The notes under the pieces were generated by a model. The model was not told the DNA's origin. It saw only the letters and a program-made list of their open reading frames with translations, and searched no databases. A stretch of 64,000 nucleotides of DNA from Chitinophagales bacterium (GTDB lineage: Bacteria > Bacteroidota > Bacteroidia > Chitinophagales > CAIODY01): assembly GCA_947449695.1 (NCBI GenBank), contig CANFST010000002.1:5427-69426 (forward strand), written 5' to 3'. Shown here in pieces: positions 8,743 to 43,170 of the stretch (its first letter is position 1; every line of letters starts with the position of its first letter). Position numbers and translations under genes: made by a program.

Positions 8743-8793
8743 AAAATAAAAAAGGGACTTTTGATATTTTTTATCAAAAGTCCCTTTCAGCGG
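8743..8793. repeat. Left att junction of the island (displaced host tRNA-Ser terminator plus core)
   Basis: 24-bp exact + 6-nt variable loop + 21-bp exact match (ATCAAAAGTCCCTTTCAGCGG) to 43025-43075; forms a hairpin with a minus-strand U-tract. Confidence 0.9.
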
Positions 8794-8876
8794 GCTCAAA
8801 GTTCAATATTTCGAACCAATTTTTAAAGGATTTGGAGGATATAGTTTCTTTTATGAAACGATTTAAATCTTTATAA
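8793..8876 (+). other. Detached alternative 3' end of the serine recombinase gene (GSKFNISNQFLKDLEDIVSFMKRFKSL*)
   Basis: Open in the recombinase reading frame after the shared KSLSA codons; 27 codons to TAA at 8874-8876. Confidence 0.75.
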
Positions 8877-9024
8877 ATGTGCAAATTTAAACTGTTAGAA
8901 TAAATTTTTTTGCCTGCTTCTTTTAATGCTTTTAGATACACATAATGATTAAACTAAAGGTTTGTTTTTAACTTGTTGTAATTAATAAGGAAAACTTTGA
9001 AAAAGTGAAATCTATGTTTGGTTG

Positions 9025-9172
9025 AAAACATAAAGGACAATGAGTTAACTCACTGTCCTTTGAACAACAAAGCAATTTTCAGTTTTTTATGAATTACAAT
9101 AACTAACTAAAAACTAGTTACAAAAAAAGCTATTAAAAGAGTGTGGGTCTTTATTTTATAGGAGTTTCCTGT
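9025..9172 (-). ncRNA. Candidate small RNA near the left end of the island
   Basis: Minus-strand -7 box TACCTTTG (9178-9185), no ATG-initiated ORF, ends in hairpin 9032-9061 with a minus-strand G.U pair and U-rich tail. Confidence 0.4.
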
Positions 9173-9189
9173 GATTTCAAAGGTAAAAA

Positions 9190-9217
9190 AAGAGGGGAAA
9201 ACTAATTTCCCCCTCTT
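9190..9217 (-). terminator. Intrinsic terminator after the island DUF4249 gene
   Basis: AAGAGGGGAAA/TTTCCCCCTCTT stem followed by a U-tract on the minus strand. Confidence 0.7.
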
Positions 9218-9257
9218 GACCTAAACCCTATCGAACATGAAAAGAAAAAGCTTTTGA

Positions 9258-10085
9258 TTATTCTTTCTTCACTAATAACTCAATGTTATCGGCTTGATTT
9301 AAGCCTGCGAAAATTCCTAACCCATTTTTAATATTGGTTTGTGGTGAGGCAAGATTTTGACTGTTAGTTCCTGTTGTTTTATACAATGCAGCATAATCGC
9401 CTGTTACTTTATAAAGAATAACATCATGCCAACCTAAGTATTCAAAATCTTGCATTCGCAATTCTTGTTCGGCACCTTGTGTTGGTTCTTTTCGGAATAT
9501 TGGTAGTTTGTTTCCACTACCGTTTGAAATAGTAGTAGCGGTGCTTTGTGCTTTTACAGCTACTAAAAAGAAACTTTTATCGGGGTTATCCCAAGTTAGT
9601 TTAATGGGGTCGGGAAATGTTGGCATAGTACCAGAAGAGGGAGGTACACTTGAAAAATCAGGCACTGATAATGTATCGGTAGAAGCCTTGAAATTAGTAG
9701 GCTTTGTAGGAATTACTGTAGTTGCAGAAATCGTAAAACCATTATAGTCAAACTGCAATTTGTAAGTGTCGGAAGCCATGACTAACATACTTGTATCAGC
9801 ATAAATTGCACTGCCTTTGTAAAAAAGTTTTGTCATTACATTGTTGTGAATGATGTACACATTTAGGTTAGGTAAGTATTCTGCTGAATCATCAGACGTG
9901 TAAGGAATTTCTTTGGTTATTTTTATTTCGATGTGTTTGTCAGCTTGCAGATAGCCCTCAACCACTGCATGATTGCCCGTGAGTGTATCTGTTGCAGTTT
10001 CTTTTTTGCATTGTTGAAAAAAAATAGAACCAAAGAGTAAGAACAGATAAAGCTTGTTTAGATGTCGAATGAAAAATGTTGTCAT
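9258..10085 (-). CDS. DUF4249-family lipoprotein
   Basis: Lipobox-like FQQC, AVVEGYL, C-terminal TNIKNGLGIFAG; downstream of a TonB-dependent receptor. Confidence 0.8.
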   Translation of the reverse strand: MTTFFIRHLNKLYLFLLFGSIFFQQCKKETATDTLTGNHAVVEGYLQADKHIEIKITKEIPYTSDDSAEYLPNLNVYIIHNNVMTKLFYKGSAIYADTSMLVMASDTYKLQFDYNGFTISATTVIPTKPTNFKASTDTLSVPDFSSVPPSSGTMPTFPDPIKLTWDNPDKSFFLVAVKAQSTATTISNGSGNKLPIFRKEPTQGAEQELRMQDFEYLGWHDVILYKVTGDYAALYKTTGTNSQNLASPQTNIKNGLGIFAGLNQADNIELLVKKE

Positions 10086-10092
10086 GAAATAA

Positions 10093-40361: not shown

Positions 40362-40505
40362 TTGATTTTTTCGAATGATAAAGATAGCAGATAAAAATTT
40401 GCAATGTCAATACCGAAAAGGGGGTAAATTTTTTAGTTGTTTTATGATTTCCAATACTCTCAATTCAATCTTAAATAATTCTTCCAGAAATCATACGCTG
40501 TTCTC

Positions 40506-40577
40506 CATCAATACACATCAAATCACCATCATTACATCATGAATACAACATCAAAACATCATGGATACATCATCAAT
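40506..40577. repeat. CATCA-rich tandem repeat tract (iteron-like)
   Basis: Eight CATCA copies; two adjacent 22-bp units (40534-40555, 40556-40577) match at 19/22. Confidence 0.6.
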
Positions 40578-40805
40578 TCTGCATGAACATTTGATGCCAA
40601 AAGTGGAAATTGCTGGAATCATCTTTCCATTTCAATCCTTTCGAGGACTTTTGAATACTCTTCTTGACATTAGATTCCTTTCTGGGAATTGTTTTTCCAT
40701 TGGAGGAATTGTTTGAACCTTTCATATAGAAAGTAGGAAAGTTCACTTTTCAGTTGACTAAATATTTGCAGCGTAAATAAATTATTAACGCAAAAATTTC
40801 ACAAA

Positions 40806-41009
40806 ATGAAAAGTAAACAATTTGAAGTTCCTCAGGAACAAATCGTAGAGTTCTGTCAATTAATTGAAGAACACGAACTCGAAAATCAAATCATTGGTGT
40901 TACTGATGATGAAAACATTCTTATCGAAGTAAGCTATGAACAAAATGACAGAAGTGCCATGATGGAATTAGTTGAATTGATTGAAGTAGATGATGAGGAT
41001 GATGACTAA
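40806..41009 (+). CDS. Small, highly acidic hypothetical protein
   Basis: 67-aa ATG-initiated ORF, strongly Asp/Glu-rich, near-consensus -7 box upstream. Confidence 0.65.
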   Translation: MKSKQFEVPQEQIVEFCQLIEEHELENQIIGVTDDENILIEVSYEQNDRSAMMELVELIEVDDEDDD

Positions 41010-41163
41010 GTATTGATTTTCGAAATCAGCTTTAAAACGCCTTTTAAAATCAACGATTAGAAGAATTGACTAAAATTTCATTGCTGGTCAATCCTAAAAA
41101 TATCCATAAAAACGATTTAAAGGCGATTTAAGGCATTTTGGCTCAAAGTCAATACAGTAGGTT

Positions 41164-41219
41164 ATTCCAAGGTGAGTGCTTACCTTTGAAATGGGGGTAA
41201 GCATCACTTGGAATTTTTT
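41164..41219 (+). terminator. Long hairpin with U-tract upstream of the recombinase operon
   Basis: ATTCCAAGGTGA-G-TGCTTACC ... GGTAAGCA-TCACTTGGAAT followed by TTTTT. Confidence 0.55.
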
Positions 41220-41281
41220 AATAAAAATGAAATAATGAGCAGCATGAAAAAATAAAAAGTGAAACAGAAACAAAAGAACAA

Positions 41282-41494
41282 GTGATAGATGAAGTCATTA
41301 AAATGAATCCCAAGAAAGAACCGTTGACGAGTGAAAAGTTAAAAACGTTTAAAGGATTTGAGCAGATGAATGACGAAGAGTTAAAAGAATATTTACATCA
41401 CATTCATCAAATGGCGGTTATAGTGGTAGAATATTTAAGAACGCAAAATAATGACTTTATAGAATCAGATAATCAAAACAAATTAGCAGCATGA
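41282..41494 (+). CDS. Small hypothetical protein coupled to the recombinase (candidate directionality factor)
   Basis: Stop overlaps the recombinase start (ATGA); helical [19 protein letters not shown] segment. Confidence 0.6.
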
Positions 41495-43170
41495 CAACAG
41501 AAAAATTAGAAGTATTTCAGCAATTCGGAAGAAGTGCTAAATATCAAATTAAAAAAGTAGAAACAGGCAATGTAGTTATCTATACAAGAGTTTCGAGTAA
41601 AGAACAAGCTGATAAAAACCTTTCTTTAGAAACCCAAAGAAGAGCAATAGAGCAATATGCAGAGCGCAACAAATTAGGGATATTGGGTTATTTCGGCGGA
41701 ACGTATGAAAGTGCAAAAACAGATGGCAGAAAAGAATTTAATCGGATGCTGGATTTTATCCGAAAAAGTAGAAACAAAGTCAGTACTGTTTTAGTGTATA
41801 GCATGGATAGATTTAGCCGAACAGGTGCGAAAGGAGCTATCTCCATTGTTTCAGAACTAAGGGAGAAATATGGCATTAATGTATTTGCCATCACACAGCC
41901 AACCGACACCTCAAATCCGAGTGGTGTTTTGCATCAAAACATTCAGTTACTGTTCAGTGAATATGATAATGAATTAAGAAAACAAAAAGCAGTGGCAGGG
42001 ATGAAAGAAAAACTCAAGAAAGGAATTTGGGTAGTGCCACCACCACAAGGCTATGACATCATTAAAATAAATGGGGACAGAAAAATTGTAGTGAATGAAG
42101 TAGGAAAGAAAATCAAAAAAGCTTTTCAGTGGAAAGTAGAAGGCATGAAGAATGAAGAGATTGTGAGCAAATTAAAAGCAATGAAAGTTCCCATGTATAA
42201 ACAGCAATTACTGAAAATTTTCAAAAATCCATTTTACTGTGGCTTAATTGCTCACGGCTTATTAGATGGTGAAGTAGTAGAAGGTACACATGAAAAAATG
42301 ATAACGAAAGAAATGTTTTTACGTATTAATGATATCATGCAAAGTTCTTCAAGGTTTGGTGTTCCACACCGAAAAGAGAATGACAATATTCCGTTAAAAG
42401 TATTTATGAAATGTGATGATTGCAAAGAACCATTTGCTGGTTATATCGTGAAAGCAAAGGGTTTGTATTATTACAAATGCAGAACAAATGGTTGTCGTTG
42501 TAACAAAAATGCAAAACAGATGCACGAGTTATTTGCCAATTTCCTAAATCAATTTCAGATGAATGCGGATTGTATTAAACCATTCTTGTACGAAGTTATC
42601 AGCGAAGTTGAAAAACAACAGGAAGATAACGTTTCGGAACAGAAGGTTATCAAAAGTAATTTAACAGAGGTACAGAAAAAGATTGATGATTTAGAAGAAA
42701 GGCATTTTATTAAAATAGAGATTCCCAAACCTGTTTATGAAAAATTCTTATTGAAATACCAACAAGAAAAAAAGACAATAGAGAAAAATTTGTGTGATTC
42801 TAATATTGACATTTCGAACCTGCAAAACAACTTAGAAAAGGCATTGAATTTTAGTGTGAACCTTGCCACAGCATGGAGTTCTACGGATTACTCATCAAAA
42901 GAAAAGTTGCAGAAATTAATGTTTCCTGAAGGAATTTACTACAATCGTCAAAATCACACATTTCGAACCACGAAAATAAATTTGGTATTTGCTCAAATCG
43001 CTGATTGGAAGCGAATTACAGCCGAAAATAAAAAAGGGACTTTTGATAAAAATCATCAAAAGTCCCTTTCAGCGGAGAAAGAGGGATTCGAACCCCCGGA
43101 ACCTTTCGGTTCAACAGTTTTCAAGACTGCCGCAATCGACCACTCTGCCATTTCTCCGCTGCAAATATAG
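41491..43170 (+). CDS. Large serine recombinase (integrase)
   Basis: Catalytic [15 protein letters not shown], recombinase domain NPFYCG, Zn-ribbon CDDC...YYYKC...C, coiled coil; last 31 codons overlap tRNA-Ser antisense. Confidence 0.95.
43025..43075. repeat. Right att junction; element-supplied tRNA terminator inside the recombinase CDS
   Basis: 46/51 identical to 8743-8793; hairpin AAAGGGACTTTTGAT/ATCAAAAGTCCCTTT. Confidence 0.9.
43073..43157 (-). tRNA. tRNA-Ser (anticodon TGA)
   Basis: Acceptor GGAGAAA/TTTCTCC plus discriminator G, anticodon arm GCAGT-CTTGAAA-ACTGT, long variable arm, GTTCGAATC T-loop; CCA not encoded. Confidence 0.97.
43162..43169 (-). promoter_or_regulatory. tRNA-Ser -7 promoter box TATATTTG
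   Basis: Matches TAnnTTTG, 4 nt upstream of the mature tRNA 5' end. Confidence 0.65.

Follow-up and report, generated by a model that had tools for sequence, protein, structure and literature searches.

The 64,000-nucleotide stretch of a Chitinophagales bacterium genome analyzed here (contig CANFST010000002.1 of assembly GCA_947449695.1; hereafter the window) contains a genomic island with the gene of a large serine recombinase (LSR, integrase) at its right end. The joint explanation that accounts best for the observations described below is that the island was inserted by its own LSR at the extreme 3' tip of a tRNA-Ser(TGA) gene and that the integrase gene spans the attachment site of the excised element (attP), as a result of which the C-terminal tail of the enzyme differs between the excised and the integrated states. 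We consider this explanation probable. The features involved are listed in Table 1.

The end of the integrase open reading frame (ORF) overlaps the tRNA-Ser(TGA) gene, which is located on the minus strand, and the final 31 codons of the integrase are therefore antisense tRNA sequence. This overlap had been described in an earlier analysis of the same DNA (the original prediction), and the coordinates of the ORF and of the tRNA confirm it. The original prediction also held that joining the two ends of the island would append 27 different codons in the same frame. Indeed, a frame that is open from position 8745 at the left end reads through as NKKGTFDIFYQKSLSA-GSKFNISNQFLKDLEDIVSFMKRFKSL-stop. 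Joining the ends after the residues ...KSLSA of the integrase adds these 27 codons in frame (positions 8793-8873, with the stop codon at 8874-8876), which results in a predicted protein of 555 amino acids (aa) compared to 559 aa for the integrated form.

Table 1. Positions in the window of the island, its junctions and the genes discussed in the text
Feature	Position	Strand	Description
Genomic island	8794..43075		34,282 bp; bounded by means of the direct repeat and of ORF and Pfam content
LSR (integrase) gene, integrated form	41491..43170	+	559 aa; codons 529-559 are antisense to tRNA-Ser
tRNA-Ser(TGA)	43072..43157	-	Called by ARAGORN; the sole tRNA called in the window
Putative crossover core GCGG, right junction (attR)	43072..43075		Complement of the tRNA 3' bases CCGC; integrase codons 528/529
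Putative crossover core GCGG, left junction (attL)	8790..8793		Located by comparisons of arms
Element-side arm (P')	8794..8876	+	tRNA-3'-end mimic; with base 8793 supplies 27 tail codons and a stop, GSKFNISNQFLKDLEDIVSFMKRFKSL
Element-borne hairpin with T-run	43032..43070	-	Intrinsic-terminator-like; 18 pairs; dG -23.2 kcal/mol, z -9.1
Second hairpin copy, chromosomal side of attL	8750..8788	-	Terminator-like; 17 pairs
70-aa ORF	41282..41494	+	Overlaps the integrase start by 4 nt; kept upstream of related integrases
67-aa acidic ORF	40806..41009	+	Kept upstream of integrases from several subfamilies

The window protein has the composition of an LSR. It contains a resolvase-type catalytic domain with the catalytic serine (Pfam PF00239, Resolvase, residues 28-179, E=1.8e-26), a Recombinase domain (PF07508, E=1.5e-11) and a zinc-ribbon domain with a coiled coil inserted in it. 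Residues Y31, R33, V34 and S35 are invariant across 60 aligned sequences, as are the zinc-ribbon cysteines C308, C311 and C335, with C330 and C337 being near-invariant. The inserted coiled coil appears in AlphaFold2 (AF2) models as long paired helices at residues 359-437. Sequence matches in the PDB are to the N-terminal domains of the TP901-1 and phiC31 integrases. The attachment (att) sites are also of the LSR kind, as their identity is confined to a few base pairs (GCGG) and their half-sites show a P/B register shift of 5 bp.

The island is bordered by a direct repeat of 51 nt (8743-8793 and 43025-43075, spacing 34282), in which 46 of the 51 positions are identical (90%). The repeat begins with an A-run and continues with a hairpin (perfect arms of 12 nt, loop of 7 nt), the sequence TTTCA and, finally, GCGG; all 5 mismatches fall within the hairpin loop. 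When read on the minus strand, it presents a hairpin and then a T-run directly 3' of the tRNA. At the right junction, the hairpin is located directly behind tRNA-Ser, and its plus strand encodes integrase residues ~515-527.

In order to locate the crossover core, we compared occupied and unoccupied tRNA-Ser(GCT) sites, the left end of a second element in the same genome (contig G000:C17) and 22 element arms of other genomes. The tRNA-Ser(GCT) gene of the window's own genome has no adjoining integrase and is followed by a different terminator of its own, whereas the occupied tRNA-Ser(GCT) genes of two relatives have the element hairpin directly against the tRNA. Hence, the hairpin arrives with the element. 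That it also travels with the element follows from one complete genome, where three different tRNA-Ser genes each have nearly the same hairpin beside their own integrase copy. In genus relatives the same hairpin was found behind tRNA-Ser(TGA), tRNA-Ser(GCT) and tRNA-Asp (13 of the 14 fetched places), accompanied by a full integrase at some of these places and by a short integrase 3' remnant at others. The left end at G000:C17 has an unrelated hairpin, a terminator of the native type, which is followed by ...gaagtt GCGG GCTCAAAGTTCAATATTTCGAACC..., with the element arm being the same as that at 8794. As GCGG is the sole sequence common to the C17 left end, the left end of the window and the right junctions, the exchange most likely takes place within it.

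By this comparison, the crossover core is the last 4 bp of the 51-nt repeat, somewhere within which the 2-bp crossover would fall. The original prediction was thus correct in placing the att crossover inside the serine integrase ORF, with an exchange of the C terminus, but of the 51-nt repeat that it took for the shared core only the terminal GCGG can be retained. The predicted swap of tails is unchanged by this revision because GCGG still lies inside the ORF (codons 528/529). The left hairpin copy, which belongs to the chromosomal arm of attL, was probably left behind by a previous insertion of such an element, since 60-110 nt of an integrase 3' remnant persist ahead of the hairpin at related left ends of two relatives. 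Differences between hairpin loops were also tried as a marker of the crossover and turned out to be uninformative, as the loops vary even among elements that are 94% identical. A dyad-symmetry scan of the modelled attP, attB, attL and attR sites, whose scoring is blind to loops of odd length, gave no clear centre.

Beyond GCGG, the two arms in the window read GCTCAAAGTTCAATATTTCGAACC on the element side and AGAAAGAGGGATTCGAACCC on the tRNA side. Both contain the T-loop motif TTCGAACC, which is found at 43087-43094 in tRNA-Ser(TGA) and at 8810-8817 in the element arm, where it is 5 bp further from the core. The same element arm stands beside unrelated cargo at G000:C17, G005:C106, G003:C16 and G010:C67. 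In each of the 22 element arms compared, which come from 16 genomes, the distance between TCGAA and the tRNA-end core exceeds that in the assigned tRNA by 5 bp. In most cases it is 21 nt in the arm versus 16 nt in the tRNA, and overall 19-23 versus 14-18 nt, this register shift being one of right-hand half-sites only. The T-loop offset is identical in all the tRNAs compared.

A displacement of this size is known from other LSRs. In the Listeria phage integrase, the motif of the zinc-ribbon domain is 5 bp nearer to the centre in attB than in attP, according to the sections of Rutherford et al. (2013, PMC3783163) that deal with it, and the same 5-bp register shift is given for phiC31 in the corresponding part of a preprint (bioRxiv 10.1101/2025.05.02.651858). 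Since the shift observed here matches this attP/attB rule, the acceptor and T arm of tRNA-Ser would represent the chromosomal, B-type half-site (B') and the mimic the P-type half-site. The far end of the island holds this shifted mimic and not a displaced tRNA fragment as in an Islander-type tDNA island. The body of the tRNA remains unsplit because the exchange would occur at its last 4 bp.

The same design is found in other Bacteroidota. A search of 5.8 billion proteins gave 3096 matches with E<=0.001 among 8000 scored candidates. Among the best 120 of these 3096 homologs, 106 end with an antisense T-loop signature (GFEP, GLEP, RFEL or similar), one (P0075) ends in a tail like that encoded at the left end of the window, and 13 have neither ending. 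Homologs with E<=1e-40 were present in 17 of 151 genomes of the order. The window's own genome has at least six further integrase homologs (C29, C52, C1, C91, C41, C20 and C78 are listed). The copy on C29, which is cut by the contig end, is 94.6% identical and adjoins a tRNA-Asp with the same hairpin. More distant paralogs abut tRNA-Met (C52), tRNA-Val (C1), tRNA-Leu (C91) and another tRNA-Met (C41), and that on C20 is near a tRNA-Arg. Several of the homologs in this genome are found at contig ends, which suggests that such elements break the assembly.

We fetched 30 related loci, and in 25 of them the 3' end of the integrase gene overlaps a convergent tRNA gene. The target tRNAs, counted as 12 amino-acid specificities, are those for Ser (four anticodons), Met, Arg, Glu, Asn, Leu, Asp, Pro, Val and Ala. 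In two of the remaining five loci, the integrase gene reaches into the 3' end of a tmRNA gene (L046 at G001:C320 and L054 at G077:C7), which ties the clade to the Dehalococcoides ssrA-island case discussed below; one has a tmRNA-like end that was uncalled by ARAGORN, and two lie at contig ends. Locus L028 (G005:C98, at a contig end) shows a tRNA-Asp, the hairpin and an inverted tRNA-Asp; this is probably an artefact, with the assembly folding back on itself at the palindrome of the hairpin.

All 25 tRNA junctions have a hairpin within the last integrase codons, with dG ranging from -14.9 to -28.8 kcal/mol and z from -4.1 to -10.4. At least five T are present in the 9 nt that follow the hairpin at 21 of these junctions, and in the other four the T-run is inside the predicted stem. 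The stems vary between subfamilies yet stay paired, and the integrase residues over the hairpin (K/N/E-rich, then G...) track the hairpin and not a protein motif. These patterns suggest that the element hairpin serves as a replacement tRNA terminator and that the native terminator has been displaced to the far end of the island. The integrated-state tails that lie beyond the junction are arbitrary in length and sequence.

The original prediction had made the conservation of the excised-form tail among homologs a test of the proposal, and such conservation was found in 24 non-redundant element arms, which bear a coding signature, and in one natural full-length protein, P0075, that contains the tail. 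A profile made from the tail alignment was run on 401 genomes of the order (E<=0.01) and produced matches in 34 of them, those with E of ~0.003-0.01 being partly outside the inspected set. Of 19 new matches that were inspected, 17 show a native-type or scar terminator, 4-15 bp of a tRNA end, the shifted TCGAAC and the tail. The matches at G163:C278 and G230:C29, which belong to these 19, and also those at G006:C40 and G000:C21, were taken to be spurious after inspection.

Codon statistics were calculated for 24 non-redundant tails, with the near-identical genus copies G000_C17 and G003_C16 dropped. After the residues S-N, these tails follow the motif [FL]-[LIVM]-[EK]-D-[LIF]-x-x-I-x-[E]-[LF]-[K], the first position of which is hydrophobic in all 24 tails, with D present in 20. 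The I of the motif is found in 20 of the 24 tails and is encoded by ATA (9), ATC (8) and ATT (3), and the L is found in 17 and is encoded by TTG (9), TTA (7) and CTC (1). Pairwise differences amount to 0.47, 0.31 and 0.63 at codon positions 1, 2 and 3, respectively (3312 codon pairs). A stop codon occurs 16-27 codons past S-N in 20 of 26 tails, whereas six tails are longer, two of them extending beyond the 34 residues that were read. The conserved positions are located 30-60 bp from the core and thus beyond the 25-bp half-site that is contacted in the solved LSR-attP complex (PMC3783163). For five tails, the contig also carries an integrase downstream on the same strand, at a distance of 6.7-34 kb; one of the five is the tail of the window, three come from a single complete genome and the last is in G026. 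Judging from these alignments, the tail of the excised form, with the simplified consensus [FL]-h-E-D-L-x-x-I-x-x-[LF], is conserved at the protein level across the clade.

Two further arrangements of tails and integrases were seen in genome G109. Two element-arm tails are located 1 kb apart on the same strand (G109:C1:1172185-1172268 and 1173169-1173243), one behind an integrase-type scar and the other behind a native-type terminator, which looks like the remnant of a stacked insertion. In another island on the same contig (integrase 1796515-1798128, tail 1774982), a second integrase homolog (residues 6-487; G109:C1:1775214-1776656, minus strand) is located just inside the left end, on the opposite strand, and points outward to the left junction.

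The structure of the two forms was modelled with AF2. In the model of P0075, for which the alignment included tail fragments, the body up to residue 505 has a predicted local distance difference test (pLDDT) value of ~90; the values drop below 50 in the linker 507-528 and rise again to 72-77 in a tail helix at 531-546. A Foldseek search with this model found full-length chains of the SPbeta, Bxb1 and phiC31 integrases (E=3e-15 to 2e-11, ~530-615 alignment columns). In the model of the integrated form of the window protein, residues 514-559 have a pLDDT below 50, and the antisense-tRNA tail is without secondary structure.

Docking of the P0075 body (residues 1-506) with its tail (residues 519-552) gave a score of 0.72, compared to 0.00 for the best of three controls. 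In the calibration of the method, 58 of 80 solved complexes and 2 of 110 mismatched pairs attained this mark, counts that apply only roughly to a run on our own alignment. Three runs agreed in at least 61% of the contacts, and the partner pLDDT was at least 50. The tail residues in contact with the body, F535, M536, D538, L539, I542 and F545, are the conserved positions of the motif. On the body, the contacts involve residues 373, 434-448, 469-476 and 494-499, which belong to the ends of the coiled-coil helices and to the three helices that follow. Hence, the model has the tail docked at the base of the coiled coil. In the phiC31 integrase, the contact site of the separate directionality factor comprises the loop and the helix that immediately follow the coiled coil, together with the extreme C terminus, according to the part of the preprint that describes this complex (bioRxiv 10.1101/2025.05.02.651858); the correspondence of this site to the modelled tail site is one of topology only.

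Two small ORFs upstream of the integrase gene are also conserved. The 70-aa ORF has tblastn matches of 34-66% identity in 6 other loci and the 67-aa ORF has matches of 61-64% identity in 7 other loci, where in both cases L033 and L040 represent the same place in G003. A Pfam scan assigned neither of them to a family. The 70-aa ORF may encode a partner of the integrase or a directionality factor, and together the two ORFs look like a conserved integration module, both being candidates for directionality factors.

These findings are in agreement with the following mechanism. Sequence comparison places strand exchange in the 4-bp GCGG of codons 528/529, so that the gene spans attP. The upstream arm of the element, which comprises the last ~17 integrase codons, carries on its other strand the hairpin and the T-run, and these would become the replacement terminator behind the tRNA after integration. 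The downstream arm mimics the tRNA 3' end, with its T-loop motif in the P-type register, and at the same time encodes an amphipathic helix of ~20 residues. Integration would then swap this helix for unstructured antisense-tRNA residues. The helix may be a functional part of the enzyme that is made from the circle, docked at the base of the coiled coil, which probably acts as the hinge for synapsis and directionality in this enzyme family. As the helix is present in the circle form only, activity, stability or partner binding would not be the same for the enzyme made from the circle and that made from the chromosome. We prefer the variant in which the tail-bearing form would be integration-proficient, and the tail-less form would be weaker or dependent on an accessory factor, keeping the island stable.

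A more far-reaching proposal is that the tail helix is a built-in directionality module set by the integration state. With the helix occupying the hinge, the circle enzyme would only integrate and would not respond to any excision factor that is still present. Integration would remove the helix and free the hinge, so that the chromosome enzyme could excise alone or with the products of the small ORFs. We advance this proposal tentatively, as a possibility. If true, the direction in which the recombinase works would be dictated by the state of the very DNA that encodes it. The one observation that supports a switch of directionality or activity is the docking model with its controls.

Several points weigh against the interpretation given above. 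The two conserved small ORFs upstream of the integrase could supply directionality alone, in which case a tail switch would be needless. For the S-N residues of the tail, which are encoded by TCGAAC, the conservation has a cause at the DNA level, this sequence being the half-site motif, and need not reflect a role in the protein. The docking involved two pieces of one chain and our own alignment, and it is a model rather than a measure of binding, with the antisense-tRNA tail being outside the comparison. The cognate tRNA of each element arm was assigned by eye from the core. The tails of DsiB, a recombinase of Dehalococcoides to which we return below, are reported to be divergent in the passages of McMurdie et al. 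(2011, PMC3146451) concerned with them. Furthermore, the flanks of the island (the rlmD side on the left and the DUF255 gene side on the right) were searched for in 40 relatives, and no empty site was demonstrable among them. Neither a circle junction nor an empty site was found in the 4 assembled metagenome-run contigs compared (best query-word share 0.23); this search covered assembled contigs only and is uninformative on whether excision occurs.

No tRNA was located within 1.5 kb of either flank gene in any of the fetched loci of relatives, and in the two relatives compared, G003 and G005, the left and right flank genes sit on separate contigs. In the metagenome contigs, one short contig spans the integrated junction with zero differences, and many contigs that contain only the tRNA are from other organisms.

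Other explanations were considered as well. It is conceivable, if somewhat unlikely, that the switch operates at the level of expression. Integration would make the integrase 3' end convergent with a strongly transcribed tRNA gene and its terminator, and the gene would then be silenced in the chromosome by collision or antisense pairing, with the tail being secondary. This is consistent with the 27 of 30 loci in which the integrase gene converges on and overlaps a gene for tRNA or tmRNA, and with a strong hairpin at the 3' end of the integrase mRNA at 25 of 25 tRNA junctions. However, it leaves the conservation of the tail at the protein level unexplained. Such an effect is compatible with the mechanism proposed here, and the two could operate together.

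We regard it as unlikely that the overlap is a by-product of compactness, which would mean that the enzyme is complete at residue ~505-528, that both tails are dispensable and that the arm is conserved for DNA recognition. The linker that precedes the core (~507-528) is indeed unstructured, with a sequence that goes with the hairpin rather than with a protein motif; the integrated-state tails are arbitrary, and the half-site motif TCGAAC falls exactly on the codons for S-N. However, DNA recognition does not readily account for conserved tail positions that are past the contacted half-site, for the use of several synonymous codons at conserved residues with third positions varying most, or for the stop codon that closes 20 of the 26 tails 16-27 codons after S-N, six being longer. 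It also does not account for a modelled docking interface made up of exactly the conserved residues.

Finally, it is highly improbable that the whole 51-nt repeat is the att core with exchange anywhere in it, e.g. in the hairpin loop, for although the repeat is long and 90% identical and its palindrome is of a kind that a recombinase dimer could bind, long cores are untypical of the LSR family, left ends with a native-type terminator have only 4-15 bp of tRNA end in common with the right junction, the hairpin is missing at the unoccupied tRNA-Ser(GCT), and the three tRNA-Ser genes of one genome show the hairpin travelling.

An LSR gene that spans attP at the tip of a tRNA gene, the arrangement favored here, has several counterparts in the literature. 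The principle of a serine recombinase gene spanning its att site is already in print, though in functional terms as a speculation there. The original prediction gave attP-within-integrase arrangements as described for tyrosine integrases, which is incomplete in view of the serine cases DsiB (PMC3146451) and the rumA elements (PMC4701971), and a claim of novelty for serine enzymes would be overstated.

The closest of these is the CcrB-like serine recombinase gene dsiB of Dehalococcoides. The passages on dsiB in McMurdie et al. (2011, PMC3146451) report that the 3' end of the gene overlaps attL in every case, and the authors speculate there that it has its full function only on the circle. Like the window integrase, DsiB is a serine recombinase of ~540 aa at the edge of an island, with its stop codon beyond the junction, in the tmRNA gene or in the next island, and stacking of the islands in tandem is a further likeness. 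In both systems the gene overlaps the junction with a tRNA-like gene, as it does in the window and in 27 of 30 related loci, including the two at tmRNA genes. The differences lie in the target, which in Dehalococcoides is the T-loop of tmRNA with a 20-bp repeat and here is the last 4 bp of tRNA genes, and in the presence there of a small serine recombinase, DsiA, and a six-gene integration module. Among the 22 island ORFs scanned against Pfam, there was only one protein with a Resolvase domain and thus no DsiA-like second recombinase; instead of the DsiA module, the window integrase has the two conserved family-less small ORFs upstream. In contrast to the divergent tails there, the excised-form tail is conserved here. 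The two systems are likened by description, from the passages cited, and not by sequence.

In streptococcal integrative and conjugative elements (ICEs) inserted in rumA, the gene of the serine integrase contains attR (Ambroset et al. 2016, PMC4701971). The passage concerned states that the excised element encodes an integrase of another length and C terminus, and its authors draw the analogy to Mx8. The target of these elements is a protein-coding gene, their hosts are Firmicutes and the elements are conjugative, and the likeness is again one of description and not of sequence. The same passage contains no tRNA target, replacement terminator or conserved tail motif.

The integrases of Mx8 and SSV extend across attP, as noted in the relevant section of Hudson et al. 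(2015, PMC4383910), and the prophage form of the Mx8 integrase is reported to be less active (as cited in PMC4701971). In these descriptions of Mx8 IntP/IntX and of SSV1, attP is inside the integrase gene and the C terminus is rewritten upon integration, as in the window. However, both are tyrosine recombinases with an unrelated fold and chemistry, whereas the window enzyme is a serine recombinase; moreover, SSV1 splits its integrase gene in two and Mx8 swaps 112 residues for 13. The window integrase thus works like the Mx8 type without being a member of it.

The phage LSRs (LI/A118, phiC31, Bxb1 and SPbeta) share with the window enzyme the full-length fold, the short core, the 5-bp register shift and a coiled-coil motif that is the likely control point. 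Their targets are mostly protein-coding genes, and in the descriptions of these systems covered here, taken together and not checked individually, attP is not reported inside the integrase ORF. In the same descriptions, directionality comes from a separate factor that binds the zinc-ribbon domain and the coiled-coil base, the region in which our model puts the tail. Serine integrases were not known to target tRNA genes according to the section on Islander of Hudson et al. (2015, PMC4383910). Our searches of the open-access literature, with large LSR surveys such as Durrant et al. (2022) not covered, yielded no description of the Bacteroidota clade, of a 4-bp core at the tRNA tip, of a replacement terminator or of a conserved tail.

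What decides between integration and excision in serine integrases is under active structural study, and the enzymes serve as tools of genome engineering. The clade provides natural pairs of isoforms that differ only in a tethered helix of ~20 residues. It also indicates that serine integrases widely target the tips of tRNA and tmRNA genes in Bacteroidota, that the attB sites of the clade can be read largely from the universal T-arm and that its elements appear to carry a replacement tRNA terminator inside their own integrase gene. For annotation, the arrangement explains the variable C termini of the integrases and the orphan mini-ORFs at the left ends of islands, and the 4-bp core together with the shifted T-loop mimic allows a precise delimitation of islands.

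The cargo of the island includes type I restriction-modification genes (hsdR, hsdM and hsdS), two two-component systems, a TonB-dependent receptor and DUF6498 paralogs, and several of its large proteins belong to no family in the Pfam scan. No phage genes were seen in the survey of island ORFs and Pfam domains, and the island is not a prophage. The restriction-modification operon (window positions 32296-40361, minus strand) has two additional genes between its subunits, a gene with a Bro-N domain between hsdR and hsdM and one with a weak DUF3800 match between hsdM and hsdS. Apart from this operon, an N6-methylase with a DUF3592 domain is encoded at 15831-17087. The two DUF6498 paralogs are neighbours (17206-18572, minus strand) and represent a local tandem duplication inside the island, with flanking repeats D1 and D2 of 116 and 73 nt that have 75-79% identity and are ~700 nt apart.

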